Origin: a virus
IMG/VR virus record: IMGVR_UViG_3300029305_006219
Length of the DNA stretch: 64,000 nt
Direction: 5' to 3' (one strand)
Shown here: positions 1 to 20,167 of the stretch, piece after piece
How positions within the stretch are numbered: position 1 is the first letter of the stretch
How the letters are laid out: each line of letters starts with the position of its first letter
Translations under genes and position numbers: made by a program
Notes under the pieces: generated by a model
What the model was told of the DNA's origin: nothing
Database searches by the model: none
What the model saw: the letters and a program-made list of their open reading frames with translations, nothing else

Positions 1-306
1 GTTTCTAAAATAATATGCTCAAACTAGTCCCAGCCATATTTATTAATTGCGTGAAAAAAATGAGGACAGTTTTCATATCGTTTTCCATTGTCTCCCCAAC
101 GATATTCAGGTTTCTAATTTGTCTATCCAATATAAACCTTACCATTAACCTTATTTTTGTGCATATAAATACAATAATTATTTGTCATAAATTTTCTCCT
201 TTAATATGTTTATTTAAGCCTTATTGACTTCATTAATATATTATTTTTGTATTAAATAATTTATATAACTTTAACCTGAATTTTTTCACTATTCAACTAC
301 TTTAAA

Positions 307-1128
307 TCAATTATTCTTTTTCTTTTTAATGACAAGATTCTTTTGTTTTAGCTTTTCACTGATATTAAGAACTCGATCACAGATAGAACAATGTTCGCCT
401 TTCATACATTTTCGTCCACAACTTTTACGCAATTGCGCAAACCCTGGTACGATGCGACTAGAGTCAAAAGATAAATCAAAATCAAGAATAATTTGATTTA
501 AATCTCCAAGCCAAACTCCTTTTTTATAGATTCTATATAAAATCTCTTGTCTATTGGTTGGGCCCCAGAATTCAAGAGTCGAAATGCAATCTTCATATTC
601 TACTACATCTTCTGGACGAATAAAGAATTTTTTGAGCGCCGGTCCAGATTGAATGCTTCCTTGAGCTACATTTGGAAATGCTCTAATCTGCACCCCATAA
701 TTGTCACATACCTTCTTTGCGCGCTTCAGATCAAAGCAAATATCTTCTGCAAGATAAACTTCCGAAACACCTTGTTCTACAAGATAATGTAGTTGGTCAA
801 AATTGACTACTGTATCTCCAGTAAAATAAGGTATCTCTAAACTTTGTATACATTCTACCATCATTTCAGACATTACAGTAAAATATCCTACTTCTTTAAA
901 ACATACTGTAAAACCTAGCTCAGGATATTTTTGATGAATTGCATTAAGTTTTTTCCATTCTTTTGCTTCATAGAAATCTTGAAGATTTGTTATCCTTAAA
1001 ATAATTTTCTTGTTTGAATACTTTTGCATAAAAGGAACAAGCTCTTTATCTTGTCTATCATAAAGAATCGCAATTTCATCAAAGGCATTTAAGTTTATTT
1101 TATTGGAAAATAAAGCACAATATTTCAT
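307..1128 (-). CDS. hypothetical protein (273 aa) with a C-terminal Cys cluster (C-x3-C-x5-C-x2-C)
   Basis: Intact ORF in the track with a TGA stop. No motif recognised apart from the Cys cluster. Lies at the left edge of the early leftward region. Confidence 0.5.
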   Translation of the reverse strand: MKYCALFSNKINLNAFDEIAILYDRQDKELVPFMQKYSNKKIILRITNLQDFYEAKEWKKLNAIHQKYPELGFTVCFKEVGYFTVMSEMMVECIQSLEIPYFTGDTVVNFDQLHYLVEQGVSEVYLAEDICFDLKRAKKVCDNYGVQIRAFPNVAQGSIQSGPALKKFFIRPEDVVEYEDCISTLEFWGPTNRQEILYRIYKKGVWLGDLNQIILDFDLSFDSSRIVPGFAQLRKSCGRKCMKGEHCSICDRVLNISEKLKQKNLVIKKKKNN

Positions 1129-1156
1129 ATTATTAATCTCCTTTTACGAGTAAAAA

Positions 1157-1190
1157 ACAGGCGGCGATAATCAATCCCGCCGCCTGTTTT
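1157..1190. terminator. bidirectional intrinsic terminator
   Basis: GC-rich hairpin caggcggcg...cgccgcctg. An A-run precedes it and a T-run follows it. It sits between two minus-strand genes. Confidence 0.6.
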
Positions 1191-1224
1191 AAGTCTTAAG
1201 TTCAAATATTACGTTCTATTGCTA

Positions 1225-1614
1225 TTACTCAGCATCAGTATCAACGGGAAGAGTGTAAGCTGTCTTTGTCTTACCATCCTCAGTCTTTACCTTGCACTTT
1301 GCAATTGCGCCAGACTCAACAAGGTTGTTAAGCTTAGCCTGAATCTTATGAACAGTAAGCTCGCCGCTCTCGTCATTCATTGCAACAAGAATGTCGTCTC
1401 TTGTCTGAGGCTCGTTAGTAATTACTGCAAAGACGTTGCCTTGAAGCTCGTCGCCTTCAGCTCTCTTAGCGGCTGCGCGCTCTCTGTTCTTTGCATTTTT
1501 CTTGTCAAGCTTTGCAAGCTCGTTCTCTGCGTACTCTACGAATTCTGCGTTGTCTGCATAAAGCTCCTTCCACTCGGTGAGCTTCATAGCTGTTGTTCTC
1601 TTTGTGTCTGCCAT
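1225..1614 (-). CDS. small protein, paralog family member 1 (129 aa), possible winged-helix C-terminus
   Basis: Intact ORF with a TAA stop. It shares its architecture with the ORFs at 9817..10227 and 10799..11203: a K/R/A-rich segment in the N-terminal half (KKNAKNRERAAAKRAE in this member) and a conserved C-terminal block ending ..K..Y.L. Confidence 0.55.
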   Translation of the reverse strand: MADTKRTTAMKLTEWKELYADNAEFVEYAENELAKLDKKNAKNRERAAAKRAEGDELQGNVFAVITNEPQTRDDILVAMNDESGELTVHKIQAKLNNLVESGAIAKCKVKTEDGKTKTAYTLPVDTDAE

Positions 1615-1654
1615 TGTTTTTTTCTCCTTAAAAATTAAATTATTTTTTTTATTT

Positions 1655-1795
1655 GGTGTTATTATTATACCAAAAATTTTTTATTTTTTCAACTTTGGGT
1701 ATATTGCCCACGAATAATTTTTATTATTACTCGTTTCTGCTTTTCCCATTCTTTACATTTATATTATACCAAAAATTTTTGGATTTTTCAAGTGA
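1655..1795 (-). promoter_or_regulatory. two tandem leftward sigma-70-like promoters (TTGAAA-N17-TATAAT each)
   Basis: Reverse complement of ggtgttattattatacc..ttcaac and of tacatttatattatacc..tttcaag. Each gives TTGAAA, a 17-nt spacer and TGgTATAAT upstream of the gene starting at 1614. Confidence 0.45.
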
Positions 1796-1987
1796 AGCCT
1801 TTGAACTAACTTTAAATCCTCGTAATACAAGAAATATGAATCCTGTAATTAAACAGCTTGTGATAGTACCTAGAACTGCGATCCCTATACCTGCGGCTAT
1901 TGGCGCAGTAGGAACAGCTATGATACATGCTGCTAGTCCAAGCCAAAACATTGCGATAGTTATTAAATAGATAATTGCAACTGCCAT
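1727..1987 (-). CDS. small hydrophobic/membrane protein (86 aa)
   Basis: Strong RBS (gaaaggaggttaaaaaATG on the minus strand) and a hydrophobic N-terminus. The 3' end of the ORF runs into promoter DNA. Confidence 0.45.
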   Translation of the reverse strand: MAVAIIYLITIAMFWLGLAACIIAVPTAPIAAGIGIAVLGTITSCLITGFIFLVLRGFKVSSKASLEKSKNFWYNINVKNGKSRNE

Positions 1988-2004
1988 TTTTTAACCTCCT
2001 TTCT

Positions 2005-2871
2005 TTACCATTCTCTATATCCAGAGTAATCGAAAAGGATTGGCGCCCCATTAAGATATCCTATATTTGCGGCTCTTAAATCTCCTATTCGATATTCATC
2101 AAGGAAGTCATATAGTCTTTTTAGTTCCTCTTGTCCATAACAAGCAATAAAATCTGCTACCCATATATCGTTAAAAGCGATAATATCTAGCTCCTGACAA
2201 ACTTTATCTGATATTTTCTTTTTCTTTTTATAGTCATCACTATTGTAATCAATTCCCATTTCATCAAGAGGAATACATCTTTGCTGATAATAAATAGGTG
2301 TTTCATCTATCATACCAAGGAAACCTTCTTCAGCGAAATAGGCGCCCAAACCTGCCTCAAGCGCGTGTTCATAAAGTATAGTTTCCAGCGCGCAATAGTT
2401 CCAAGGTTCAATATATTGTTCTTCATCATGAGGCAGTTCGATATCATTTGCGTATTCAAGATCTGTATACCATATCCTATCTCCTTCATCTGGCTCAGGA
2501 TATTTGGTATCATAGTCTTTCATTTTTTCGTCCATTTTTTGACGAGCAAGTTGTATATCACCGTTACATTTGATAAGCATTTGTTGCGCCCATTCTTCAT
2601 AATAGTCATCTCTTGCTGATTCCCAATCACAATAGGCATCGTCATAACTATCCTGCTCAAATACGCAATGAAAAGGAATTTTAATAACATAAGGCTCACC
2701 TTTAATAAGCAATACAGCTTTCGATATTCCTCCATCAAGAGAAAATTCAAAAGGCGGTTGAGCTTCACGTATAGGATCTTCAAGATAAGCCTCTGTATCT
2801 TTTAAGTTAAATCCAGAATCAAGTACTGGGATTGTATTTTTTAAGAAATTTAGTATTTCTTGTTTTGTCAT
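2005..2871 (-). CDS. hypothetical acidic protein (288 aa)
   Basis: Intact ORF with a TAA stop. An upstream extended -10 promoter (TTGATT-N17-TgtTATAAT at about 2885-2925) and a terminator at 2941-2975 bracket it. Confidence 0.55.
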   Translation of the reverse strand: MTKQEILNFLKNTIPVLDSGFNLKDTEAYLEDPIREAQPPFEFSLDGGISKAVLLIKGEPYVIKIPFHCVFEQDSYDDAYCDWESARDDYYEEWAQQMLIKCNGDIQLARQKMDEKMKDYDTKYPEPDEGDRIWYTDLEYANDIELPHDEEQYIEPWNYCALETILYEHALEAGLGAYFAEEGFLGMIDETPIYYQQRCIPLDEMGIDYNSDDYKKKKKISDKVCQELDIIAFNDIWVADFIACYGQEELKRLYDFLDEYRIGDLRAANIGYLNGAPILFDYSGYREW

Positions 2872-2940
2872 TTATATATTTATTTCCTCTCTGATTTTTT
2901 CTTATACTTAATTATAACATAAATTAAATAAAAAATCAAT

Positions 2941-2975
2941 AAAAAACAGAGCGGCGCGAATGCGTCGCTCTGAGA
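2941..2975 (-). terminator. intrinsic terminator for the leftward transcript
   Basis: Hairpin cagagcg..cgctctg followed on the minus strand by TTTTTT. Confidence 0.55.
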
Positions 2976-3010
2976 GGCGTAAAGTGATTATTCGGCGCCG
3001 TCATAAACTG

Positions 3011-3229
3011 TTATCGTTGGTTTATCTTTTTCGATACCTGTTGAATAATATATTCCTGTTCTGATTCAAATCCATCATCGAGCAATCCATACTGCTTCAT
3101 AACCTCGTCAAAAATTTTTTTATCTGCAATATCGACATCATCGTAATATAAATCTACAAGATAATTAATTGCTTTTTCAACATTTTCATAATGCTGAGCT
3201 ATTGCTATATTTAAAGGATTAAAGTTCAT
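3011..3229 (-). CDS. hypothetical small acidic protein (72 aa)
   Basis: ORF from the track. It overlaps the start/stop of 3219..3506, consistent with an operon. Confidence 0.45.
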   Translation of the reverse strand: MNFNPLNIAIAQHYENVEKAINYLVDLYYDDVDIADKKIFDEVMKQYGLLDDGFESEQEYIIQQVSKKINQR

Positions 3230-3506
3230 TAGGCGTAACCTCCTCTATGGTATAATAACAAGCATCATAGATTTCGTCTGAATTCACGTCGGGAAGTTTA
3301 GCAAAAATGACATCTGCGTGCATATCAAGATAAGCTCCAACACACTCTTCTGCGCAGTATTCCATTTCCTCTTTATTTGTAATATCGACGCGGTCACAGA
3401 TAAATTCTTCGATAAGTCCATGTAGATAAGAATTTCCAATAGTAACTTTAATAGCGTTCATTTTATTTCCTCTCTTTTCTTTTTTATTACATATATATTT
3501 TATCAT
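3219..3506 (-). CDS. hypothetical small protein (95 aa)
   Basis: ORF from the track. An upstream promoter TTGATT-N17-TAAAAT lies at about 3515-3545 on the minus strand. Confidence 0.45.
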   Translation of the reverse strand: MIKYICNKKEKRGNKMNAIKVTIGNSYLHGLIEEFICDRVDITNKEEMEYCAEECVGAYLDMHADVIFAKLPDVNSDEIYDACYYTIEEVTPNEL

Positions 3507-3574
3507 ATTTTTTGAAAAAAATCAATTAGAAAGCAAAAGGTGGTGATAATATAGCAGATAAGAAGTTAAATTTG

Positions 3575-3605
3575 ACTTTATTTTAATTTTATATTATAAT
3601 TAATA
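3575..3605 (+). promoter_or_regulatory. rightward promoter TTGACT-N17-TATAAT
   Basis: aaatTTGACTttattttaattttatatTATAAT lies upstream of the RBS aaaggaga and the GTG start at 3636. Confidence 0.5.
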
Positions 3606-3635: not shown

Positions 3636-4115
3636 GTGGAAATAATTGGATTAATTATTTTAATAGCTGGATTAATATTTATTGGATTTGACTATGGACG
3701 TATGTTAATTAAGAATCGGCGCCTATAGGCAAAATTAGGTGATGATTCGGCGCCTTACACACCTACAAGGAATATTATGGTAATGGATGAATATTGCCCT
3801 TATTTAGTTAAATTAACGACACTATGTATTAAAGCTCATGGAGATGCTAATATTAAAATTACAAAATATGATAGTAGTCAAGAGAATGTTGGTGTGATTA
3901 AAGTGTATTTTGATAATGATGATGAACTATTGGTTTATTAGTATGGTAAAGCAAAGATTAAAGAGTTAACAAATAGAGAAAAGAAGAATTATGCTAATAA
4001 AATTTTTCTTGACTATAAGTTACCAGAGGGTGCGGCCGGCGCAGTAATAAAAGATTTAGGATTAATGAATCACATGGTTTATTTCGGCTTTTGTGATGAA
4101 AGGAGTGTAAAATGA
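3636..4115 (+). CDS. membrane protein (about 159 aa, N-terminal TM helix) with 2 in-frame TAG codons
   Basis: GTG start after the RBS AGGAGA. The frame is open to the TGA at 4113-4115 when the two TAGs are read through. The ATGA overlap with the next gene suggests translational coupling. The gene is absent from the ORF track because of the TAGs. Confidence 0.5.
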
Positions 4116-4519
4116 GTAATTGGGCAAAAACAGGTGAAGCTTATTTTGGAGATTCTTTTGATAGAAAAATAACTCTTGGACCTGGGGAATTGAGTTTTAG
4201 CGCTAATAATTGCGTGATAGATCAAGATGCTTTATCTTCTATAGTAGGATATGATAGTGCTAATACTTATGCAATGGCAACTAGTTATGAAAAGCCAATA
4301 AGTATAGGCTACTGTGGAGATATAAGTGCTAAGGCAGATTCTGTTAGCGCTTTACAAGTGGATATTTCAGCAAGAGTAGATCAGCTTGAAGAGAAGCTTG
4401 ATACAGTAATGGCGCGCATTGATGAGTTAAAGCAGTCTGTTTCACGTACTTCAAGATTGCGTTCGTTATTAAGAACGTTGCATTATAATAGCGAAGTTGA
4501 AAGTGGCGCCAACTTTTGA
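4112..4519 (+). CDS. hypothetical coiled-coil protein (135 aa)
   Basis: ORF from the track with an RBS gaaaggag and no in-frame TAG. Confidence 0.55.
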   Translation: MSNWAKTGEAYFGDSFDRKITLGPGELSFSANNCVIDQDALSSIVGYDSANTYAMATSYEKPISIGYCGDISAKADSVSALQVDISARVDQLEEKLDTVMARIDELKQSVSRTSRLRSLLRTLHYNSEVESGANF

Positions 4520-4776
4520 TGTAAGCTGCTAAGGGTGCAGATTGGCGCATGAACCAACACGATTTTGCTACGATTTTAATTGAACTTGCTTTTGATAAAA
4601 GGCGGCATGACAACAGATTGTTGCAAAACTATTAAAGATGATGCGATAAGGAAAATATAGAAAAGAGTATATCGTCGAAAAATTGGCAAATTAAGGTAGT
4701 ATTATGGAAAAAATTTTGGACAAAAATAGATACAATTACTACCTTAATTTTTATATAATAGTGAAAGGAGTTAGTA

Positions 4777-4974
4777 ATGACTCGTGAAGAAATAATATTT
4801 TAGTTAAAGGAGATGCGCGCAAAAGGTTATACGTATAAGTTGATTGCGAAAGAGGCAAAATTAGATAATCCTGATTAGCTTTATAAGTTTATCAATAGAG
4901 ATGCTCCTGCTATTTGGGTGAAGCAGCAATTAGAGAACTATTTGCGCCGAGTAAACGGAAATGGGTCAAATTAA
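4777..4974 (+). CDS. small HTH-like protein (65 aa) with 2 in-frame TAG codons
   Basis: RBS gaaaggag plus ATG at 4777. With TAG read as sense the protein is MTREEIIF(Q)LKEMRAKGYTYKLIAKEAKLDNPD(Q)LYKF..., ending on TAA at 4972-4974. Confidence 0.4.
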
Positions 4975-5162
4975 AGAAAGAGTGATTTACACTCGAAAAA
5001 TGGCGTACGAATTACGCAAGTTGGGTTTTAAGATTATTAGAGTGATACCTGATGAGAAGAAACCTTATTTTGATAATTATGTATTTGAAGATAGTCTTGA
5101 GTTACAAGAGGCTATGCGCAAATTATCTTAGGTTTAAAATAAGGAATCGGAGGTATCGGATA

Positions 5163-5846
5163 ATGATTAAAGAATTTAAGAATAATCCTGTAAGAGATTT
5201 TGGTAACGTATATCAGACTATGTTGTCACAGATAAAAAAGAGATATGAGAAAGATCCTGTACAAGCTGGAGAATTAGCTATTAGTTTTATTGAATATGTA
5301 TTAACAGGTGATATTAGTAGTGACGATGATATTATTGAAGGCTTTGTTGAAGGATATAAGGTTACGACTAAAAAGAATCAAGATAAATATGATGCTAAGG
5401 TCGCTGCAACAAGAGACGCGCTAAAGCCAATTGCAGATATGTATAATAGGGGTATGACACAGGCGGCGATTGCGCGTGAGCTAGGTGTTCAGCCGCCCGC
5501 TATTTCAAAGAAAATGTCTACCATTCGTACACAGTTTCCAGAGTTGTTAGATAATGAAGGAAAATTAAAGAAAGTTTCCGAAAATTCTGGAAATAATGGA
5601 AAGTTTCCAAAAAATGAGGAAAGTATAGAAAAAGTTTCTGAAAATTCTGGAAATATTAAGAAAGAAGAAGAAAGTTTAGAAACGTTTCCAAGTTTCCAAA
5701 GTTTCCACAATAATAATAACTATAATAACAATAATAACTAGAATAATAATAATGAAGTTTCCATTTCGCCTCGCGGCGAGTCAGGGCTTCGCCCCGACAC
5801 CCCTGCGGCTTCGCCGATAAAGAAGATTGGAGGGTTTGAGTTTTGA
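5163..5846 (+). CDS. HTH DNA-binding protein (sigma-70 region-4 / ArpU-RinA-like helix-turn-helix), with a possible C-terminal extension past the TAG at 5739
   Basis: RBS ggaggt plus ATG at 5163. HTH motif GMTQAAIARELGVQPPAISKKMSTIR. The track ORF stops at the TAG at 5739-5741, and the frame then stays open to the TGA at 5844-5846. The 3' end is built from repeated KVSENSGN / GTTTCCA units. Confidence 0.5.
5571..5770. repeat. iteron-like direct repeats (A)AAGTTTCC(A/G)AAA, at least 7 copies including three tandem copies, followed by an AT-rich (AAT)n tract and a GC-rich segment
   Basis: aaagtttccgaaaa, aaagtttccaaaaa, aaagtttctgaaaa, cgtttccaa-gtttccaaa-gtttccacaa and agtttccattt, all inside the 3' end of the HTH gene. 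Confidence 0.5.
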
Positions 5847-6124
5847 GGGGAGTATATGTAATTGCTGATGATATGGGAAGAGTTTACTATGTGGGACAGA
5901 GTGAATAGTTGGAAAATAGAACATGGGGACATTTAGCTAAAATAAAACAAGATGAGAATAAATATAAGAAAAATAAATTATATTGGATATTGGGTAGATT
6001 GAATGATTTAAAAGTTGGGCTTCATTGTTATTTATTAGAAGAGTATCCGTCATGGAATAGAATCGATATTAAGACAAGAGAAAAAGAAAATATTCGATTG
6101 TTAAAACCTGTATTAAATACTTAG
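5843..6124 (+). CDS. small GIY-YIG nuclease (about 93 aa) containing 1 in-frame TAG
   Basis: RBS GGAGGG plus a TTG start. The motif GVYVIADDMGRVYYVGQSE(TAG)LENRTWGHL matches GIY...YIG...R...H. The TAG lies inside the conserved block, at a position that is D/N-like in I-TevI and UvrC. Confidence 0.55.
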
Positions 6125-6315
6125 GTTCCTACTGATTGCATTTGTTATATGAAGAATATTTGGAATGCGGTAACAGCGGCAGTTCAGGCAGATGAAAATG
6201 GAAGATGGGATTTTAAAGGATGTAGGAAAATATGGTGAAGATGTGGAGAAATTATAGTAGAGTGGAGAGTTGTCCTGCGACCGAATCCAGAACCACTTCC
6301 ACTCATCTCTCGTCT

Positions 6316-6350
6316 TCGTTATCCCTATTGATTTATAATAAAATATATGA
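6316..6350 (+). promoter_or_regulatory. promoter TTGATT-N17-TATAAT
   Basis: attgatttataataaaatatatgatataat lies upstream of the RBS and the ATG at 6391. Confidence 0.45.
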
Positions 6351-6390
6351 TATAATAATTATAGAAAATATAAGAAAGGAAATAATACCA

Positions 6391-6762
6391 ATGAATATTG
6401 AAGATATGATCATGAATGGTGCATCTGAAGAAGAGATTGCAGAAGCTATAGACCAGATTCGCGCCAAGAGAACCTTGAAAATGGAAGAAGAGCGTCAGGC
6501 GCGCGAATCTCAAAAGAAGAAAGATGAAGAGCAGACCGCGAAAGAGGCGCTTAAGGCAGAGGCTCGCGCGCATTTCATCAATGCTGTACTTGCATATAGT
6601 GAGGCTTTTGACCTTTTGGAAGAGGGAGAGAGCTGGACTGAAGAAGATCTAAAAGAGGTGGAAGAGTACCTTATTCAGATTGAAGGAATAATTCCTATGT
6701 ATGCTAAGATGATGAAGAAGAAAAAGGAATTCGGATTTGGAGATCTTTTTGGATTGATATAA
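6391..6762 (+). CDS. hypothetical acidic coiled-coil protein (about 123 aa)
   Basis: The most plausible start is the ATG at 6391 (RBS aagaaaggaa) inside track ORF 6232..6762. Confidence 0.5.
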   Translation: MNIEDMIMNGASEEEIAEAIDQIRAKRTLKMEEERQARESQKKKDEEQTAKEALKAEARAHFINAVLAYSEAFDLLEEGESWTEEDLKEVEEYLIQIEGIIPMYAKMMKKKKEFGFGDLFGLI

Positions 6763-6974
6763 GCGCCGGTCCAGGTTATAGAAGTATAAATATAGAGAAT
6801 AGAGCGTTGGGTAAAACCCGGCGCTCTTATTGTTTTACCTCTTGACGCGACGAAGGCGCATTGGCGCCGAGGAGCGAAAGTTAAAAATTTTTCAAAAGTA
6901 GATAATTGTATTACCTTAATTTTAATATAACAATGACAAAGAAATACATTGTCACTAAGAAAGATTGTAACGAA

Positions 6975-7040
6975 TTATTAAACTACTTAATTTTATAGTC
7001 ATTATAAAAGTCATTACAATCTTTCCAATACTAAAAGAAA
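6975..7040 (+). promoter_or_regulatory. structured 5' leader of the HTH regulator gene, with a 10-bp inverted repeat AAGATTGTAA...TTACAATCTT
   Basis: A perfect 10-bp inverted repeat separated by about 50 nt, together with the direct repeat tcattataaaag/tcattacaat, lies immediately upstream of the RBS and the GTG at 7055. Confidence 0.4.
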
Positions 7041-7054
7041 GGAGATGAATTATA

Positions 7055-7762
7055 GTGAAACTTGTTGAAGGTAAAATAACTTTAGCTAATTTGGCTACTT
7101 GGCTAGGAGTATCTGCAGGCACCCTGCGCAATAATAAAAGTAAGTATTTAAATATTTTAGCTCGCTATTGCCGATATCATGAAGAAGGAACTACCAAAAA
7201 GACTCTTTATATTGATGAAGTATACGAAGCAGAATATTCGGCGCTATAGGGTCCAAAACCTTATCAAAGAGTAAAAGAGTTAACAAGAGAGGGTTGGAGC
7301 GCAGAAGGGCTAGATAGTTGTGCTCTTGTTGCAAGTCGTAATTTTCCTATTCTATAGCAAGAGGGATACACAATTACAGAAAATACCAATTATAATTATA
7401 CTTGTTAGAGCAGAACGGAACTTTGGGGCAGTCCTATGAAGCGCACAAATGGTGAGCTTGGCTATTGTCGTTATGAGTATTGTAAAATTGGACCTTAGGG
7501 CAAGCTTGTTCCGCTTAATGAGGAAGAATAGAAGATTAAGCGCTAGATCACAGAGAAATACTTTGGTAATTTAGAAGATTTTACTCTTGGGATAGCTGAT
7601 GATATTAAAACTGGTAAGATTACTGCGGAAGAGGCTGGTATTGCATTAGCTAATTTAGGTAGTCATGGAGAATATTTAGCTTGGAAGAATGAACTTGAGG
7701 CTAGACTAGGTTGTAAGATTTATAAAGGAACAAGAATACATAATGAAGAGAGTGCGTTTTAA
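7055..7762 (+). CDS. Xre-like HTH transcriptional regulator (about 235 aa) with 6 in-frame TAG codons
   Basis: N-terminal HTH motif ITLANLATWLGVSAGTLRNNKSKYL. The track ORF ends at the TAG at 7247. The same frame then continues for about 170 codons with five more TAGs and no TAA/TGA until the TAA at 7760-7762. A terminator follows directly. Confidence 0.55.
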
Positions 7763-7777
7763 TGCGCACTCTTTTTG
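7749..7777 (+). terminator. intrinsic terminator
   Basis: Hairpin agagtgcg-ttttaat-cgcactct followed by TTTTT. Confidence 0.6.
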
Positions 7778-8600: not shown

Positions 8601-8618
8601 GTGAACAAGGGCGCAGAT

Positions 8619-8655
8619 AAAAAAAACAGAAGGCTTTACCCTCTGTTTTCTTTTA
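8619..8655. terminator. bidirectional intrinsic terminator (ends the leftward early operon)
   Basis: An A8 run, then hairpin acagaagg..cctctgt, then a T-rich run. Confidence 0.6.
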
Positions 8656-8669
8656 GTGACATTTGGCGC

Positions 8670-9196: not shown

Positions 9197-9232
9197 TCCT
9201 CTTCCTCGCTTTCGTAGTGGGGGTGACTTTCG

Positions 9233-12074: not shown

Positions 12075-12159
12075 TTTTTCTTTTCCTCTCTTTCTGTCAT
12101 AGGGAGTAGCCCTCGCTCTCCACTCGACATATATATTATATCACATCTTGACGAATTTG

Positions 12160-12606: not shown

Positions 12607-12640
12607 TTGGTTTAGTTCCTTTCTTCCTTACTGCTCTTAT

Positions 12641-12669
12641 ATTATACCATACTTTGAGCGATTTGTCAA
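12641..12669 (-). promoter_or_regulatory. early leftward promoter (class A)
   Basis: Plus-strand attatacc...ttgtcaagggg with a 17-nt spacer. A second, class-B promoter lies at about 12745-12795. Confidence 0.5.
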
Positions 12670-12856
12670 GGGGTTTTTGAAAAATTTTTTCAAAAATTTT
12701 TGAGTGTCCACTGATTAGCAAGTCCATTTCACTGCTTTTGTTTCTCACCCCTTGACTACGATAATATTATACCACAAAGGGCGCAAAAAGTCAAGCGGTT
12801 TTGGGAATTTTCTTTTCGTCAATTTGCACAAACTTTTGGCGAAAAAATGCGTGGAA

Positions 12857-12935
12857 TTGTGCAATTTGCACAAAAACGGCGCCACACCGATCGGTGGCGC
12901 GCCGACCAAAAAGAGGGAGATTAATCTCCCTCTAT
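12857..12935 (-). promoter_or_regulatory. regulatory/insulator cassette: TTGTGCAAtTTGCACAA, then the GC palindrome ggcgccaCACCGATCGGTGgcgcgcc, then a terminator hairpin
   Basis: Same element order as at 10492-10625. The terminator hairpin agagggagattaatctccctct overlaps the TAA stop of gene 12921..13130. Confidence 0.5.
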
Positions 12936-13130
12936 TATGATTTTATTGATAACTTTTGCATAGTCTTCTTGCGCTCTTCGGAATGCTTGTGCCGCAGTAT
13001 GCAAAGGGCATTCTTCGCAATCAATTTCGCCGCACTGTATATGAATGCAGGGGTCAATCATTATAGCTTCAAGAGTGTCGTGCTGTTCTGTTGCGGTTAT
13101 TGTGACTATGATTTTCATATTTACCTCCAA
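12921..13130 (-). CDS. small Cys-containing protein (69 aa)
   Basis: ORF from the track with a TAA stop. Confidence 0.45.
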   Translation of the reverse strand: MEVNMKIIVTITATEQHDTLEAIMIDPCIHIQCGEIDCEECPLHTAAQAFRRAQEDYAKVINKIIIEGD

Positions 13131-13381
13131 ATTAAATTGATAAGATAATAAGTATTCATCGCAAATAATGCGACATTAAGTATTACAAGATTTATGCGCC
13201 TTGCGCTAAAGCAAAATGCGGTTGCGATTGCCGAGCCGATGAAGAATAATACTGTCATATCGGCGCCACACATAACACCTATTGCGCAAGCGGTATAGAT
13301 TAGTGCGGTGATATCGGTGATATCAAATTCATAGGGGCGGTCAAGGCTGAAATAGGTTTTTAGTTTACCAATCAAAGTCAT
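13121..13381 (-). CDS. small membrane protein (86 aa)
   Basis: Two hydrophobic segments. TAA stop. Confidence 0.5.
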   Translation of the reverse strand: MTLIGKLKTYFSLDRPYEFDITDITALIYTACAIGVMCGADMTVLFFIGSAIATAFCFSARRINLVILNVALFAMNTYYLINLIWR

Positions 13382-13553
13382 CTACCTCTTCTTCCTCATA
13401 ATCATTAGTATAATAATATTGCGTGGTTTTGAACTCTTTACCACAACCGCATTTATATTTGCGACTTGCGACAATTTGCTCTCCGTCCTCTTCATATTTT
13501 GCCGATAAATATTTAACTTGGGCGGTGCTACCGCAATTTGGACATTTAATCAT
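13365..13553 (-). CDS. small zinc-ribbon protein (62 aa)
   Basis: CPNCG...CGCGKEF motifs. Confidence 0.5.
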   Translation of the reverse strand: MIKCPNCGSTAQVKYLSAKYEEDGEQIVASRKYKCGCGKEFKTTQYYYTNDYEEEEVDDFDW

Positions 13554-13753
13554 TTTAATTTAAGCTCCTTTCTAATATTGATAATTCCACGAAATTCTGC
13601 GGTATAGATTGCTTCACAGTGAGGGCAACAAACTTTAGCCTCAAAATCTGCTTCATACCCGTCAAAATTCCATATCTTTGCATCCACATCTCCACAGAAC
13701 AAGTCATCTCTGGTTATAAGTTTATCGCAATTTGGGCATTTAATCATTTTCAA
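13550..13753 (-). CDS. small zinc-ribbon protein (67 aa)
   Basis: CPNC...CCPHC motifs. Confidence 0.5.
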   Translation of the reverse strand: MKMIKCPNCDKLITRDDLFCGDVDAKIWNFDGYEADFEAKVCCPHCEAIYTAEFRGIINIRKELKLK

Positions 13754-13945
13754 ATTCTCCTTGATATTCTCTTATTGTGCAATATCCACTCCAACGCCAT
13801 TCAAGGCATTGTTGATTGATATATTCTTGTGCCTGTTCTTGACTATCAAAGATAGGCGGTTTATTATCTCCTATGAATCCTTTATGCAAGAAGCCGTTTG
13901 GACAAGAGCGAGTATGAATATAAATTACATATTGCATAAGTATTA
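13740..13945 (-). CDS. small protein (about 68 aa); the longer track ORF 13740..14273 is rejected because it runs through the tRNA
   Basis: An internal ATG with RBS aagaggtaatacttATG lies just downstream of the tRNA. Upstream of it, the ORF translates tRNA and promoter DNA (..GSIPIRF.. matches the T-arm). Confidence 0.35.
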
Positions 13946-13957
13946 CCTCTCTTTTTT

Positions 13958-14032
13958 TGGTGAAGCGAATGGGAATTGAACCCACAACGCAGTTGAATAG
14001 TGTCAACCTCATTACCTTTGTGATACCGCTTC
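13958..14032 (-). tRNA. tRNA with CTA in the anticodon loop: candidate amber (UAG) suppressor tRNA
   Basis: Minus-strand sequence GAAGCGGTATCACAAAGGTAATGAGGTTGACACTATTCAACTGCGTTGTGGGTTCAATTCCCATTCGCTTCACCA. The 7-bp acceptor stem has one G.U pair. U8, A14 and GG are in the D-loop. The T-arm is GTGGG/CCCAT with loop TTCAATT. CCA is encoded. The anticodon stem GTTGA/TCAAC is perfect but the loop CACTAT has 6 nt, which is atypical, so the fold needs software confirmation. Confidence 0.6.
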
Positions 14033-14045
14033 TTATTACATTTAT

Positions 14046-14074
14046 ATTATACCATATAATCTTGCTTTTGTCAA
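14046..14074 (-). promoter_or_regulatory. consensus promoter driving the tRNA (TTGACA-N17-TGgTATAAT)
   Basis: The reverse complement reads cTTGACAaaagcaagattatatggTATAAT. The predicted transcription start is about 7 nt before the tRNA 5' end. Confidence 0.55.
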
Positions 14075-14217
14075 GAGGTTTTCGAAAAATATTTGCAACT
14101 ATTTTTCTTATCTCCGATACTTTCCTACTCAAAGCTTTCGTGTCCGTTCTCTTGTTGTACACCAAGTTTCTGATTTCCATTCCTTGCAAGTTAATTTCTC
14201 CGCACGAGGTTCCCCCT

Positions 14218-14258
14218 CTTGACATTATTATTATATCATACAATCGGGAAAATGTCAA
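14218..14258 (-). promoter_or_regulatory. second (class-B) promoter upstream of the tRNA
   Basis: The reverse complement reads cTTGACAttttcccgattgtatgaTATAAT. TGCACAA-type sites lie at 14275-14319, a GC palindrome at 14321-14347 and a terminator at about 14350-14385 further upstream. Confidence 0.5.
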
Positions 14259-14461
14259 GTGGTAATGTTGCACAAAGTTTCAACAAAAAAATGGCGGGAA
14301 GTGTACAAAATGCACAAAACGGAACGCGCCGGCCGGGCTCGTTCCGCTCGGATTTCAGGCAAAAAAGAAAAAACCCAGAACTCATGAAAAGCTCTGGAAA
14401 TTTGTTGAGAGGTCTACTTCGTGGAAATTCGGACTTGGCGCGACCGCCTTCGTCCGTCAGC

Positions 14462-14764
14462 TTAATGGCTGAAGTGTTTCAACACGTCTTGTACATTGTA
14501 CTCATTTTCATCATCACTCATAATTATAATTTTATTTTCCCATTCAGCAGGAATGCTTAAAATTTTAAATGTTTCCTTTAAGAATGAAATCATATTCGTA
14601 CAATCATTTTTTTGATTGTCAGAATGAAAGAGAAGGGCGCCCAACTCTTCACAATAAAGTGCATGAAGTGGATAGTCTTGCGCCGAGAGGGTTTCCCAAT
14701 CAAGGGGAGTAAGTGATGATTCAAAAGAAGTGATGACAAGAGCGTGGATGAAGTGATACTTCAT
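14462..14764 (-). CDS. hypothetical protein (100 aa)
   Basis: ORF from the track with a TAA stop. Confidence 0.5.
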   Translation of the reverse strand: MKYHFIHALVITSFESSLTPLDWETLSAQDYPLHALYCEELGALLFHSDNQKNDCTNMISFLKETFKILSIPAEWENKIIIMSDDENEYNVQDVLKHFSH

Positions 14765-14846
14765 ACCGCGTGACCTCCTTGTATCTCTTATTTCTTTTTA
14801 CATTTATATTATAATATAAAATTTTATAAAAATCAATGGGTGTGGA

Positions 14847-15055
14847 TTATTCCACACCCAAGAGTTCCTTTATTTTATTGACTACTTGCTCTTGTGCTTG
14901 TTTCAGAATGTAATAATCACAATTATCAAGTGTTGCAATATAATCATCTACCGCTATGCGGATTTCAATTTCATTACTATTATGATTAAGATCATACTCC
15001 TTAATGATTTCTTTTTCATTGATTTCTACGCCCGTAGTAATCTCTATATACATAT
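14847..15055 (-). CDS. small protein (about 68 aa, starting MYIEITTGVEINEKE)
   Basis: A strong RBS aaaaggagaaaacaatATG lies inside track ORF 14847..15173. A class-A promoter at 15386-15414 serves the operon. Confidence 0.45.
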
Positions 15056-15096
15056 TGTTTTCTCCTTTTGCGAATTTCCAAATTTTTCCAATGCGC

Positions 15097-15354
15097 CTAC
15101 CAAGCGACTCGGATATGATATCTACCTTCAAAAAGGTTTTTTTCAATCTCAGCCTTGTAGCCAAATTTTTCAAGATTCGCTCTTATGAGTTCGACCTCAT
15201 CTTTGGAAACCTCTTTTACTCCACTGAAATAACCTTGTGAAGCCCTTTTTTTGATGAAGCGCAACATCTCTTTCATTGCCCACGAATGCATGAATTGGTT
15301 TTGATTATTTTCTGCCATCTCTCTTGCTTCCTTTGCGGTCATAGGGTTTTTCAT
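15097..15354 (-). CDS. hypothetical protein (85 aa); the only early gene found that ends on TAG
   Basis: The stop codon is cta on the plus strand at 15097-15099, which is TAG on the minus strand. The frame stays open for about 22 more codons. Confidence 0.5.
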   Translation of the reverse strand: MKNPMTAKEAREMAENNQNQFMHSWAMKEMLRFIKKRASQGYFSGVKEVSKDEVELIRANLEKFGYKAEIEKNLFEGRYHIRVAW

Positions 15355-15428
15355 AAGTATTTCCTCTCTTTCTTTTAGTATATATATTATACCATACTTT
15401 TATATATTTGTCAAGTAGTTTTTGAAAA

Positions 15429-15653
15429 TTATTTGAAAAAAATTTCAAGCACAATTACATCGTCGCAACAACCCTCAATAGTTATTTCCATACTATCTAT
15501 CTTGCGGTTAGCATACTCTTTAATATGCTCACATTCTTTAACATACCAATCGATTGATTGAGCACCAAGCCATTGTTCTGCTTTGAGTAAGAAGTTGTCA
15601 TAAATGCGGATTTTATCTATGTTGTAGATAAGCGGAAGTTGTGCAAGTGTCAT
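15429..15653 (-). CDS. hypothetical protein (74 aa)
   Basis: RBS AGAGAGG. A class-B promoter lies at 15686-15714. Confidence 0.5.
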   Translation of the reverse strand: MTLAQLPLIYNIDKIRIYDNFLLKAEQWLGAQSIDWYVKECEHIKEYANRKIDSMEITIEGCCDDVIVLEIFFK

Positions 15654-15832
15654 AAGTCATTTTCCTCTCTTTCTTTTACACTTATATTATACCACAAATA
15701 TCGGGAATTGTCAATAGGTAATAATCAACAAAGTTTTGCGCCGATTTTTGTGCAAAATGCCAGCCCACAGATAAAACGGCTCGGCGCGCCCGATGCCGAG
15801 CCGCCAAAAAACAAAAGAGGGCAATCGCCCTC

Positions 15833-16213
15833 TTAGGTTTGATATTTAGTTATCTCTGTGGAAGAGCTTTGCGCCACCATTAGCGAAATACACCTTTGCA
15901 TTGTATCGAGTTCAACCACTCTGATGACTTTGCCTTTAGCATACGCATATCCGCACTCCCAAGCTGATCCAAGGTCACCATTGGCGCCTTCGCAAAAATA
16001 GAGAATTTCATCACATTCATCTATTGCTTGAACGTCGTGTTGGAATACCTTGCGCGCCCATTCGGAGTTAGGTAAAGCTTTAGCATTAGGTATCTCTAAT
16101 TCGTGGGGAACGTAAACTTTATATCCTAACTGTCGTAAGAGTTTTGCGTGCTTGTTTATTCTGTCCTTTTGGCTTTCGGTAAACATAGCACTTGCTATAT
16201 AAAACTTTTTCAT
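15833..16213 (-). CDS. nucleoside 2-deoxyribosyltransferase-like protein (NDT / Rcl-DNPH1 fold), 126 aa
   Basis: N-terminal FYIASAMFTE and catalytic-region DLGSAWECGYAYAKGKVI match the NDT family pattern (YxAGxxF ... D.G...E.GyA.a.gK). Confidence 0.55.
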   Translation of the reverse strand: MKKFYIASAMFTESQKDRINKHAKLLRQLGYKVYVPHELEIPNAKALPNSEWARKVFQHDVQAIDECDEILYFCEGANGDLGSAWECGYAYAKGKVIRVVELDTMQRCISLMVAQSSSTEITKYQT

Positions 16214-16238
16214 ATCTCACCTCTTGATAGTGGATAGA

Positions 16239-16457
16239 TTATTCATCTATCCACTCTTTTACTTTATAGGCTGTAACCTCGACAATATCAGCGGTGAATT
16301 TTATCTCTCCCGTAAAGTTATAGATTACGTAAGTATTACCTCTGTTATTTGTCGTAAACTCTCTTGCAAACTGAATTGCCATACTAAGATCGTCAAAATC
16401 AGCAATATGTTTGCCGTCCGCATAGACGCCATAGTCAAGAATGTCAAATTTTACCAT
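16239..16457 (-). CDS. hypothetical protein (72 aa)
   Basis: RBS AAGGAAGG. A class-B promoter lies at about 16486-16522, directly preceded by ATTTTGCACAAAATT. Confidence 0.5.
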   Translation of the reverse strand: MVKFDILDYGVYADGKHIADFDDLSMAIQFAREFTTNNRGNTYVIYNFTGEIKFTADIVEVTAYKVKEWIDE

Positions 16458-16555
16458 AATATTAATACCTTCCTTCCTTTACTGTGCCTATATTATATCA
16501 TATTACTTGCCTCTTGTCAATAGGCATTTTGCACAAAATTTTGCGGCGGGTCTTG

Positions 16556-16864
16556 TTAACAATATACAAGACCCATATCACGCCAACGGAGAATAGAAAT
16601 TTGAGAGCAGGCGCGCCCGACCTCAAGCGCTTTTTTCAAGGTACTTTCGCGATGGCTCTTGTCTATGTAATAAACTCCAGAACTATACCATATACCACAG
16701 TTGCCTTCGTATGCCTTAACGGCGTTGATTGCTTCGCGCGGGTCACGGGTTTCGATACCTTCGGTGGCTACTTGGTAGCCTGTTTTGAACGTGACGCGCT
16801 GACCCTTTTTGAGAGTTAAGCCGTCATTATCTTTAAGTTTGAGAATCGAGCGAATGTTAATCAT
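16556..16864 (-). CDS. hypothetical protein (102 aa)
   Basis: A class-B promoter at about 16895-16925, with TTGTGCAAcTTGCACAA at 16958-16974 upstream of it. Confidence 0.5.
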   Translation of the reverse strand: MINIRSILKLKDNDGLTLKKGQRVTFKTGYQVATEGIETRDPREAINAVKAYEGNCGIWYSSGVYYIDKSHRESTLKKALEVGRACSQISILRWRDMGLVYC

Positions 16865-17041
16865 AGGTGTTTCCCCTTCCTTTATCTTACGTACTTATTA
16901 TACCATAAAAGCGGGAATTTGTCAATAGGCAAAAGTAACAAAGTTTTGATAGTAAATTTGTGCAACTTGCACAACTATGCGTAAAGCGTCACGCCGCGGC
17001 CCTTGGCGTGACGGCGAAAAAAAAAGAGGGCGCAAGCGCCC

Positions 17042-17242
17042 TCATATGAAGTCGGCAAATTGGTCTTCCACCCAAGCCATTATAAGAGGATTAAAGGTTT
17101 GTATCTCAACCTCTACGCATGAGGGATGGACTTGGAGAAGAATTGCCTCTCCTGCGTTATTAGCGGCGAGGAATGAGCAGACTTTTTGCACCGCCATACC
17201 GCTTTCAAAAGTTTTATTAAGCATAAAATTCTTATACTGCAT
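17042..17242 (-). CDS. small protein (about 66 aa)
   Basis: RBS ataagaaaggagatatatATG. It is the C-terminal part of track ORF 17042..17443, whose 5' part overlaps gene 17271..17558 out of frame. Confidence 0.4.
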   Translation of the reverse strand: MQYKNFMLNKTFESGMAVQKVCSFLAANNAGEAILLQVHPSCVEVEIQTFNPLIMAWVEDQFADFI

Positions 17243-17270
17243 ATATATCTCCTTTCTTATGGGGATTGCC

Positions 17271-17558
17271 TTAGCAATCCCCCGTATAGCAACCCATATA
17301 GGGGTCAAAGCCGTTTTCATCAGGCTCTTCTTCCTCATAGTCATACCAGTCGTCATTATAATAGAGGGTCTCAGAGCCGTGATGGTAAATGATGCGCGCC
17401 ATATCTGTCGCCTCTGCTTCAGTAAGATAGCCATTAGCAACAAGCTCTATAAGTCTGCCTATTGCAAGAGAATGAGTATCTTCAAGTCCAAATTCCGTAC
17501 AAGCAAGATTGAAGCAAGTCTGCAAGTCGAGTTTTGTGTAATCCATAATGCACCTCAT
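17271..17558 (-). CDS. hypothetical acidic protein (95 aa)
   Basis: ORF from the track. A class-B promoter lies at about 17596-17632. Confidence 0.5.
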   Translation of the reverse strand: MRCIMDYTKLDLQTCFNLACTEFGLEDTHSLAIGRLIELVANGYLTEAEATDMARIIYHHGSETLYYNDDWYDYEEEEPDENGFDPYMGCYTGDC

Positions 17559-17832
17559 AGTATTTATTTGAGAGTCTATTCCCTCTCTTCTTGCCTATAT
17601 TATATCATATATTCTTGCATTTGTCAATGAATAAAATGTAAACAATATATGAATTATGGGACGGGATCCAATCATAGTTTATTCAATCAATTGAAATAAA
17701 AAATTTACAAATTGTTCACAAATTGCTTTAACGGTGCGCGCCGACCGTGCCCGCACCGAGCGATATAAAAAGGCGCGCCAAAGGTCACCCTAAGGCGCGT
17801 TATAGTGTTGATATGAGATGCTAAGGGCGCGC

Positions 17833-18126
17833 TCAGGCGCCCTCATCATCAAGCTGACTCTCTATAAATGGTATGATGATATTGAATATTTCAACTTCTT
17901 TATTGGTTAAGCCTATAATATCGCAATATGCTATTGGCTCTGCTATATCTTTATATACCGTGCGTACTGAGGGGCTTAAATGGTATGGGTCAATATAAGG
18001 GTCGCTATCACTATCACCCCACATTCTGTCACCTTTGACATCGTATATTGCCAATACATCGCCGAAGTAGCGGGCAAGATATTCTGCCCATTGTGTAAAC
18101 TCATTTTGTATGCTTATTCTTTTCAT
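17833..18126 (-). CDS. hypothetical protein (97 aa)
   Basis: ORF from the track. Confidence 0.45.
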   Translation of the reverse strand: MKRISIQNEFTQWAEYLARYFGDVLAIYDVKGDRMWGDSDSDPYIDPYHLSPSVRTVYKDIAEPIAYCDIIGLTNKEVEIFNIIIPFIESQLDDEGA

Positions 18127-18130
18127 TATA

Positions 18131-18346
18131 TTATTCCCCCATTATCTCCGCTATTGTGTTATCATATATTCTTTTTGCTTTAGTAACGCCATATTGAAAC
18201 GATATAATACCCTTACGATAGTCATCTAATATATGCCCTATGGCGATAGTTGTAGGGTGTTCAAGTCCTAACTCTTTACACGCTTTATTAAAGTATCTTC
18301 TTATGCTCATAATATTCTCCCTTCTTGAGAGGTGGATTATCTCCAC
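18131..18346 (-). CDS. hypothetical protein (71 aa)
   Basis: ORF from the track. Confidence 0.45.
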   Translation of the reverse strand: MEIIHLSRRENIMSIRRYFNKACKELGLEHPTTIAIGHILDDYRKGIISFQYGVTKAKRIYDNTIAEIMGE

Positions 18347-18681
18347 CTCTCACCTCTCTCTATATCAAAGTAATATATAATTTCATCAGCGTCAATGAAT
18401 TTATTTAAGTCAAGACCGCTATTGTAAAACAAGTCATTTAATTCATCAAGATTATTATAGTCATAAGGGTCAAACTCATAAAGTTCATCTTCATTATTGC
18501 AAAATGGGCAAGGGTCATTGTATTCCATAGCATACTGAGGAAGAGTCACTTTATGACACTTGCTACAATAAAGTAAATCTGTTAAACGGGCAGGGCGAGT
18601 AACTATTTTGTTATTAAGATAAAACGTCGCAAGATATTTGTTATTGTATTCATTGTGCTTTGTGTTAATAGTAATTTTCAT
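18337..18681 (-). CDS. Cys-containing small protein (114 aa)
   Basis: CSKCHK...CPFC motifs. Confidence 0.45.
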   Translation of the reverse strand: MKITINTKHNEYNNKYLATFYLNNKIVTRPARLTDLLYCSKCHKVTLPQYAMEYNDPCPFCNNEDELYEFDPYDYNNLDELNDLFYNSGLDLNKFIDADEIIYYFDIERGERWR

Positions 18682-19269
18682 TATTATATACCTCTCTTTT
18701 CTTTATCTTGACGGGGCTATTATATAGCCCCGTATAATTTCATAGGGTTACTTATATTGATTTTCTCTTGAGTGTTTTCTAACTGTTGTATTAAAGCTTT
18801 TTCCTCTAACTCTTGTAAAGCAAGTTCAAACTCATACTCTCGACGGTTATCAATGTGCTTGTCGACCACTATTTTATTTTTCATTATCTTCACCCCCTTT
18901 GTCTATAATGGTAATAGCAATTTTTGCAACAAGTGCAATTAAACCTATTACTAACCAAGTGCCAATAAATTCACCTAACATTTTTTTACCTCTCTGTTTT
19001 GATTTTTTGTTTGCGCTCTCTCTCTTGGAGCATACTCATTGTATCACTTCTTTTTGAACTCCAAGTTTCGAAATTATGAACTTTTTGTAAATCCGACGGG
19101 ATTTTTCAAATTTTTTTTGTTAACAACTACACAACAATCTCGACATCTTTTGTTCATAATTTATTCATAACTTTTTTAGTTATTTTCGGGAAAAAAATTA
19201 TTCACAATTTGTTCACAATTCCGCTCACGACATCTCCCTCCTAGAATATTTCTTTTATTTCAAAAAACG

Positions 19270-19310
19270 AACTTCTAACAACAAAAGAGGGATTTTAACA
19301 AATCCCTCTT
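19270..19310 (-). terminator. intrinsic terminator (leftward)
   Basis: Hairpin agagggatt..atccctct followed on the minus strand by TTTTGTTGTT. Confidence 0.5.
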
Positions 19311-19346
19311 TGCTTCTCATATTCAATTGAAAATTACGCACACGTA

Positions 19347-19826
19347 TTATAGTTCCTTAAAACGCTCGTTTTCTATTTCTCCTAGACTCTTTCGAATCTC
19401 TTCAGGATAATGATGTTTTACGCATTTAAAAATATTCTTTTTACCCATTGGATATAATTCGCCAACATGGCGGAAAAAGAAGCATATAGGCGGCAAATGT
19501 GTAACTATATCACTTCCATTTCTAAACATGGTGAAATGTGCCCAGCGCTCTCTTAATTCTTTCTTAACGCGCCAGCCGCCATAGATTCTAGGTCCATCAA
19601 ATCCAATACCGGTTAACCCCTCTGCGCGCAAGTCTTCTCTATGAAACCACACAGCTTCATGACATAATGCGGCAAGAGCTGCGCCATGACTATAACCAAC
19701 TACTACAATACGTTTCCACCTATAATCGCCGCTAAATCCTTTCTCGGTTGCGCGCCTAATAACAATATCTTCTATTGTTTTCCAGCACTTTAAGAAGCCT
19801 CCATGTACCCTATATTTTATCTTCAT
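19347..19826 (-). CDS. class-3 lipase-like alpha/beta-hydrolase fragment (159 aa), possibly N-terminally truncated
   Basis: GxSxG nucleophile elbow GYSHGAALA. The protein is shorter than typical Lipase_3 family members. No start codon is available further upstream in frame. Confidence 0.4.
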   Translation of the reverse strand: MKIKYRVHGGFLKCWKTIEDIVIRRATEKGFSGDYRWKRIVVVGYSHGAALAALCHEAVWFHREDLRAEGLTGIGFDGPRIYGGWRVKKELRERWAHFTMFRNGSDIVTHLPPICFFFRHVGELYPMGKKNIFKCVKHHYPEEIRKSLGEIENERFKEL

Positions 19827-20167
19827 ATCTTTATAGGGGCGGCGCCAGTAGGCGAAGTTAGCGCACCAATCTAGCTTACCGCGACTTGGCTAGAAAAAGA
19901 TGTAAAGTGTCTTATCGCTCTCCAAAAATGCATAATTTACTTTGCCCTCTGCCTCTTGGTACTCAATCCAATTATTGCACCAATTAAATAACTATACTAA
20001 ATTCATGGCGCGCCCACCCTTAGCCGCTTAAGGTAACTGTCTAAGGAAGATATAACCTAGACCGGCGCTCTCTTAAAATAATAATCATCTCTTTTCTCCT
20101 TTCATATGATGATACTATTATTATAACAGATTTTTTTATAAAGTCAAGTACTTATTTCATTAACCTC

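Follow-up and report, generated by a model that had tools for sequence, protein, structure and literature searches.

The DNA analysed here, a window of 64,000 nucleotides from IMG/VR virus record IMGVR_UViG_3300029305_006219 (all coordinates are those of this window, one strand read 5′ to 3′), comes from a phage in which the stop codon TAG appears to have been reassigned to glutamine, and in which about 32 small leftward genes, forming a contiguous module, never use TAG within the reading frame and end in it only once. Being free of TAG, this early module reads the same under the standard code of the host and under the recoded one, and the arrangement as a whole is probably that of a phage of genetic code 15 with a TAG-free early module, driven by host-type promoters and expressed before a suppressor tRNA is available, and a TAG-bearing virion module expressed after it. 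The exact window sequence corresponds to about 9,742-73,741 of Joint Genome Institute (JGI) contig Ga0318466_10002543 (135,189 bp), recurs as identical copies in many samples, has a G+C content of 35%, and makes up about half of the 135-kb genome of a siphovirus of gut Firmicutes that is phAss-1-like (NCBI “Caudoviricetes code 15 clade”). Flanks of 9.7 kb to its left and about 6 kb to its right were also read, about 80 kb in all. The layout on which the argument depends is as follows.

307-3506 and about 8670-20006, minus strand: the leftward blocks
8670-18981, minus strand: main TAG-free early block, about 26 small genes including exonuclease-like, NT5C-like and NDT genes
307-3506, minus strand: second TAG-free leftward block, six genes, leading into a tRNA array just left of the window
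11355-12074, minus strand: exonuclease-like gene
12160-12606, minus strand: NT5C-like gene
15833-16213, minus strand: NDT gene
3636-7762, plus strand: island of about eight genes between the two leftward blocks, with a helix-turn-helix (HTH) protein (5052-5846) and a GIY-YIG gene (5843-6238)
20227 to the end of the window, plus strand: the rightward block
21481-63856, plus strand: virion (late) module with TerL, portal, protease/scaffold, capsid-like, tape-measure and tail genes
22697-24445, plus strand: TerL, 582 amino acids (aa), 8 TAG
24918-26522, plus strand: portal, 534 aa, 8 TAG
26540-27901, plus strand: protease/scaffold, 453 aa, 0 TAG
28465-29517, plus strand: capsid-like protein, 350 aa, 0 TAG
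36829-46257, plus strand: tape measure, 3,142 aa, 82 TAG

Genes were called with TAA and TGA as the sole stops, and open reading frames (ORFs) were chosen by a codon model blind to TAG, so that the absence of TAG is not built into the result. In the 32 curated minus-strand genes (307-3506 and 8670-18981), none of 3,408 codons is an in-frame TAG, where about 41 would be expected from position-specific base composition and 34-50 from the rate in late genes (P for none, about 1e-15 to 1e-22), and the genes end in 22 TAA, 9 TGA and a single TAG, at 15097. On both counts this agrees with an earlier note on this DNA, which had described the minus-strand early genes as free of in-frame TAG and their stops as TAA or TGA save that one; it had put the minus-strand genes at about 40, where our count is 32-38. 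The late block at 20227-63856 (34 genes, 13,915 codons) carries 205 in-frame TAG, or one per 68 codons, rising to one per 52 in a gene of 1,654 aa and one per 38 in the tape-measure gene, in line with the TAG-rich plus-strand genes described earlier. Similarly, the island holds 16 in 1,167 codons, with at least one in six of its eight genes, and TAG ends none of the 34 late genes and none of the eight island genes. Early and late genes differ at the level of codons (Fisher test, P = 4e-20) and of genes (0 of 32 against 23 of 34 with TAG, P = 9e-10), and when late genes are limited to those of 300 aa or less, 13 of the 20 contain TAG. As for the contents of the early block, the earlier assignment of NDT holds (Pfam, E = 2e-19) and that of an NT5C-like nucleotidase is matched by PHROG only (5'-3' deoxyribonucleotidase, E = 5e-12), while that of an exonuclease has only a weak PHROG match (E = 6e-5).

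That TAG serves as a sense codon elsewhere in the genome is apparent from what is gained by reading through it: ORFs of at least 100 aa grow from 11.9k to 22.9k residues in total and the longest from 504 to 3,142 aa, and TerL, portal and other virion proteins reach full length. Aligned with close recoded relatives, 80 of 99 TAG positions face glutamine (41) or TAG (39); with standard-code relatives, 101 of 208 face glutamine, compared with 317 of 768 for the window's own CAA and CAG codons; and with Enterococcus phage EF1 glutamine is the commonest partner (13 of 73, against a background of 4.9%). One TAG of the NrdD gene, to the right of the window, corresponds to the Q of the motif N-x-E-Q-x-P-x-E in Thermotoga maritima NrdD structures, and every one of the nine phage homologs retrieved has that Q as well. 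Judged by these alignments, the genome is TAG-recoded and TAG behaves as a glutamine codon (genetic code 15). The JGI gene calls for this phage are fragmented, and contigs of this kind have to be annotated with genes called under code 15 or under a mixture of codes.

It is the module, and not the strand, that sets the split. The earlier note had made it specific to the strand as well as the module, and this part of its claim is overturned by the lipase-like gene 19347-20006(-), a GIY-YIG gene and NrdD, which lie on the minus strand and require TAG to be read through, the outcome that the note itself had named as a refutation. The two that fall within the window, wholly or in part, are:

19347-20006, minus strand: class-3 lipase-like gene, 219 aa, in-frame TAG at codons 5 (19992-19994) and 39 (19890-19892)
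1-188, minus strand, continuing to the left of the window: N-terminal part of a GIY-YIG/NUMOD3 homing endonuclease gene, six TAG, three of them within the window

In the lipase-like protein, Pfam domain Lipase_3 covers residues 36-174 and thus spans TAG codon 39, Rhizomucor lipase structures in PDB align from residue 28, and both alignments begin upstream of residue 61, where the standard-code reading starts; the 159-aa standard-code ORF at 19347-19826 is hence a truncated form of this gene. Its 60 N-terminal residues are conserved in a relative (locus L043) that has its own TAG at a different position. The claim that the minus-strand genes are intact in the standard code accordingly stands for the 32 curated genes and falls for 19347-19826; the region considered earlier had ended at 19830, just short of the lipase-like TAG codons. 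NrdD, on the minus strand, has two in-frame TAG; its gene (right flank, locus L009 4737-7700) also contains an intein-like LAGLIDADG insertion, which close relatives of 645 aa are without. In-frame TAG occurs in each of the four homing-endonuclease-type genes seen in the window (1-188, 5843-6238, 24519-24875 and 61336-62136; two GIY-YIG, one HNH and one other homing endonuclease), irrespective of module.

These exceptions also bear on the idea that a strand-linked mutational or compositional bias makes TAG rare in minus-strand frames, with no selection related to decoding. GC and AT skews do change sign between the blocks, as such a bias would lead one to expect, but the comparison of the three frames that the earlier note had proposed gives 85 TAG in frame +1 and 26 in frame +2 of the early genes, 111 in all, against 0 in frame where about 41 are expected. 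Moreover, the lipase-like, GIY-YIG and NrdD genes bear TAG on the minus strand, and the capsid genes lack it on the plus strand. A bias of this kind is effectively refuted by the frame counts, and we regard it as wildly improbable.

The early block itself contains a single departure from the rule.

15097-15099, minus strand: the only TAG stop of the early genes, ending gene 15097-15354

Reading through it would add 27 codons, as far as a TGA at 15016, and the ATG of this gene at 15354 is preceded by a ribosome-binding site (RBS) and by a promoter at 15414-15386. Were this TAG suppressed, the product would gain a basic C-terminal extension of 27 residues and the next gene would be overlapped (15016-15354). 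For six other minus-strand ORFs (3011-3268, 17271-17675, 17679-17894, 18720-18938, 13121-13495 and 15016-15354), a need for TAG was tested and rejected, because their TAG-containing extensions overlap promoters or lie 5′ of starts preceded by an RBS, and have no family matches. Several of the apparent N-terminal extensions with TAG, such as that of 17271-17675, are promoters read as protein, and their recurring “YDII” is TATGATATAAT translated.

Those promoters furnish a second, independent mark of the early class. Thirteen perfect sigma-A-type promoters (TTGACA, 17 nucleotides, TG-n-TATAAT) lie at 9741-17627 on the minus strand, all directed leftward, with near-perfect leftward copies at 1664-1692, 1763-1791 and 12766-12794, and every leftward promoter of the early block stands upstream of an RBS and a start codon. 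In the whole 64-kb window the perfect motif occurs 15 times, and outside the early block only at 20168 and 24872, both on the plus strand. This supports the view that the TAG-free block is a real module, apparently read by the unmodified sigma-A polymerase of the host, and offers an independent sign that it is early; perfect host-type promoters allow the early class to be recognised from sequence alone, by a kind of evidence that arguments for a code switch usually lack. The perfect promoter at 24872-24900(+) lies right before the portal gene, at the end of the HNH endonuclease gene, and sigma-A-like promoters in or near the island occur at 3572-3600 and 6328-6356. A gap of about 900 bases between island and early block (7763-8669) has no convincing gene on either strand and contains hairpins and a promoter that points left (8183-8155). 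For a shared late-promoter motif, a simple k-mer search of late intergenic regions returned only the RBS.

The partition extends beyond this genome. A portal-based search yielded 77 related loci, in which recoded lineages have 43-126 TAG in about 5,000 rightward codons and others 2-10, a mixture of recoded and non-recoded lineages consistent with recoding having been gained repeatedly. Leftward genes are in view in eight recoded relatives (portal 48-78% identical), and there TAG accounts for 13 of 9,477 leftward codons and for 673 of 36,329 rightward ones, and relatives of the early region found through the exonuclease gene (86-88% identical) show the same partition. By these counts, the TAG partition is conserved in recoded relatives. 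A mosaic origin, with the leftward block taken up not long ago from a phage or host of standard code and TAG sense codons still to build up in it, would fit the difference in G+C content (38.4% in the early block, 34.5% in the late block). We consider it very unlikely, given that the same partition recurs in recoded relatives over 48-78% portal identity with orthologous early genes, that TAG is the stop of only 1 of the 32 genes in the block, as would befit long residence in a TAG-suppressing genome, and that the lipase-like and homing endonuclease genes in or next to the block do have TAG.

Relatives are also informative as regards the suppressor. The four closest each encode a tRNA(CUA) (Rfam, 48-56 bits) whose anticodon loop has 7 nucleotides, CUCUAAN, and whose CCA end is encoded. 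It follows an RNase H gene, is oriented like the tRNA array and lies about 8 kb past it, and the genes that precede it, for an MVP-shoulder protein, a sigma-70-family protein, an RNA ligase, a kinase and a phosphatase, are largely free of TAG. From this synteny the same tRNA(CUA) would be expected elsewhere in the present genome. The arrangement of phAss-1, with the suppressor (Sup-CTA) directly upstream of nrdD, was rejected, as no such gene is found at that place in the present lineage. The left flank contains an array of at least 14 tRNAs (locus L001, 13945-20010), co-oriented with the early genes and none of them CUA; one has a 78-nucleotide insert (19030-19180), a second has an expanded anticodon loop (16926-17016), and directly 3′ of a tRNA-Gln(UUG) lies a match to a hepatitis delta virus (HDV)-like ribozyme (F. 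prausnitzii type; 37 bits, where the gathering score is 44). The right flank of about 6 kb has no tRNA, and the window has one.

10689-10760, minus strand: tRNA-like gene found by ARAGORN (Rfam tRNA, 44.6 bits), with an 8-nucleotide anticodon loop, TTTCGTTT

As a candidate CUA suppressor this gene was rejected, its loop TTTCGTTT being of eight nucleotides and without CUA. Its orthologs (L036 11322-11391 and L037 11294-11363) keep the acceptor, D and T arms and have very different anticodon arms (AGG, AGT), which makes the anticodon arm seem to be evolving unusually fast. In the tRNA array of a close TAG-recoded relative (L026 3945-4020 / L119 3640-3715) there is a tRNA with a UCA anticodon, a potential reader of UGA, and TGA still behaves as a stop. 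The array of a close relative (L120 2118-2732) also includes a ROOL RNA (Rfam RF03087, 175 bits), of which the readable part of the array in the present phage has no match.

A temporal switch of code is the published model (Borges et al., doi 10.1101/2021.08.26.457843) and a plausible one for this phage. After infection, the TAG-free module, along with the tRNA array that runs in the same direction, would be expressed by host RNA polymerase and unmodified host ribosomes; a phage tRNA(CUA), charged with glutamine, would then accumulate and compete with release factor 1 (RF1); and full-length products of TAG-containing genes would become possible only once it had built up. The junction between the two transcriptional directions suggests how such a switch might be coupled to late transcription.

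20120-20196: two divergent promoters of sigma-A type, with the lipase-like gene on one side and the first rightward gene on the other
20227-21399, plus strand: first rightward gene, 390 aa, two in-frame TAG, with a perfect host-type promoter upstream

The leftward promoter of the pair (20147-20120) matches 11 of 12 consensus positions and the rightward one (20168-20196) all 12, both with the TG extension. Downstream of the leftward promoter and its RBS, and ahead of the lipase-like start, lies an upstream ORF of 15 codons (MIIILRERRSRLYLP; 20043-20087, minus strand) that ends in TAG; it could act as a leader that terminates or not according to which code is in force. The 390-aa protein is labelled ‘sigma factor’ by PHROG (phrog_5767, E = 3e-44; unconfirmed); its orthologs contain 3-13 TAG in recoded relatives and none in standard-code ones, and the consensus promoter ahead of it is retained in closer relatives. 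For this gene, the lipase-like gene and the island gene at 3636, the combination of TAG with a host-type promoter implies that any block on expression would be translational rather than transcriptional. A tentative extension of this, which we think rather doubtful, places the code switch upstream of the late transcription switch: the 390-aa and lipase-like genes, both with in-frame TAG, would be transcribed from host sigma-A promoters right after infection, and the accumulation of suppressor tRNA, and not a cascade of transcription factors, would be the master timer that releases the late regulator and, through it, the virion module.

Several observations weigh against a TAG-free early module that precedes suppression. 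Searches of the window and both flanks (9.7 kb on the left, about 6 kb on the right) with ARAGORN (default settings, with introns, and at a low threshold), with Rfam (by gathering score and by E-value) and with a regular expression for CUA stem-loops recovered no tRNA(CUA), and no gene for a release factor or an aminoacyl-tRNA synthetase was found in these stretches either. Three minus-strand genes (lipase-like, GIY-YIG and NrdD) carry TAG; the label of ‘sigma factor’ for the 390-aa protein received no support from Pfam, PDB or profile comparison with the sigma-70 proteins of relatives; and the timing of expression we infer from promoters and gene content. Furthermore, avoidance is not unique to early genes, as 11 of the 34 late genes (2,766 codons) have no TAG where about 40 would be expected, among them protease/scaffold, the capsid-like protein, a major virion protein at 33363-34286 and 53006-55481. 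The major tail genes are TAG-free too, and the earlier equation of TAG-free with early does not survive these cases.

A deficit of this size in late genes points to an additional constraint from expression level, and the main rival explanation makes do with that alone: suppression would be constant but inefficient, and strongly expressed genes would purge TAG, with no temporal switch. Such selection explains the TAG-free capsid genes, and the perfect consensus promoters ahead of the early genes are what it would predict. Yet all 32 consecutive early genes are TAG-free, many of them tiny and of unknown function, against only 7 of the 20 late genes of 300 aa or less; the genes ahead of the suppressor tRNA in relatives are largely TAG-free as well, which fits a constraint set by order of expression; and homing endonuclease genes embedded in TAG-free regions carry TAG. 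Expression-level selection without a switch is, in our judgement, unlikely, although it may contribute: under the temporal switch, expression level would also shape TAG density, with the most abundant virion proteins avoiding TAG.

Among known systems, the closest named relatives are phAss-1 (OQ749652, 135,976 bp) and large siphoviruses of Firmicutes such as Enterococcus phage EF1, and the best matches are to large siphoviruses of Enterococcus, Bacillus, Clostridioides and Brevibacillus along with phAss-1. The traits of a broad phAss-1-like group are all found here, namely homologous capsid, portal and protease, a genome of about 130-140 kb and a tape measure of about 3,150 aa. For phAss-1 itself, Babkin et al. 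(2023; PMC10607447) describe a reassignment of TAG to glutamine, three tRNA-Sup-CTA genes and a tape measure of 3,149 aa, and, as to hosts, they assign relatives to Clostridia/Eubacteriales; the Results and Discussion of that paper describe no TAG-free early block or promoters. The present phage resembles phAss-1 and the proposed genus Phassvirus in size (about 135 kb), in its tape measure (about 3,150 aa) and large tRNA arrays, in having TAG as glutamine in TerL, portal, tape measure and some DNA-metabolism genes, and in capsid and protease homology. It differs in that phAss-1 has two Sup-CTA genes directly upstream of nrdD whereas the closest relatives of the present phage have none there and one after an RNase H gene instead. 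Membership in Phassvirus (more than 80% nucleotide identity and synteny with phAss-1) was rejected on the capsid protein and the placement of the suppressor tRNA: the capsid protein is only 46% identical (the protease, 41%), which argues against the same genus. Crassvirales, with crAss-type virion proteins and a Bacteroidota host, was likewise rejected, the best matches being the large siphoviruses just named and phAss-1. A related NrdD/dUTPase/ligase/helicase module occurs in an 86.5-kb scaffold (ENA scaffold_189, locus L018) beside an integrase and Clostridia sporulation genes (SigE-like, SpoIIGA, CspB), which suggests that a relative resides as a prophage in a genome of Clostridia.

According to Borges et al. 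(doi 10.1101/2021.08.26.457843), phages with an alternative code can read their early genes by the standard code of the host and switch afterwards; structural and lysis genes are recoded, replication genes variably so, and a homing endonuclease is recoded inside an early gene. Like those gut phages, the crAss-like and Lak phages of earlier reports that they cite and the phages of Yutin et al. (2021; PMC7886860), the present one concentrates in-frame TAG in the virion module and keeps a subset of genes compatible with the host code; it further shares with them suppressor tRNAs (in its relatives), recoded homing endonucleases, a depletion of TAG stops and the same temporal-switch model. It differs from them in belonging to a phAss-1-like lineage of Firmicutes siphoviruses, in its unusually dense array of perfect sigma-A promoters, in having several TAG-bearing genes with host-type promoters, and in that no suppressor was seen in the approximately 80 kb read. 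For crAss-like code-15 phages there is proteomic proof that TAG is glutamine (Peters et al., 2022; PMC9523058); they share this reassignment, which in the present lineage is read from sequence, but their virion genes are unrelated and their host is Bacteroidota. Recoded gut phages have theta (HDV-like) ribozymes beside their tRNAs (Kienbeck et al., 2024; PMC10879173), and the HDV-like match in the left array resembles them but scores below the gathering threshold and stands behind a normal glutamine tRNA, not a suppressor.

Both the phenomenon and the phage group have thus been described before, and the established picture is unchanged. What is added here is the evidence from promoters, the genes that break the pattern, the place of the suppressor tRNA in relatives and a possible TAG-gated regulator that would link the code switch to late transcription. 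Genes that combine TAG with a host-type promoter give simple experimental access to translational gating. Another lineage of large Firmicutes siphoviruses is now seen to use a reassigned stop codon in some modules and not in others, and the partition is conserved across relatives that were recoded independently.

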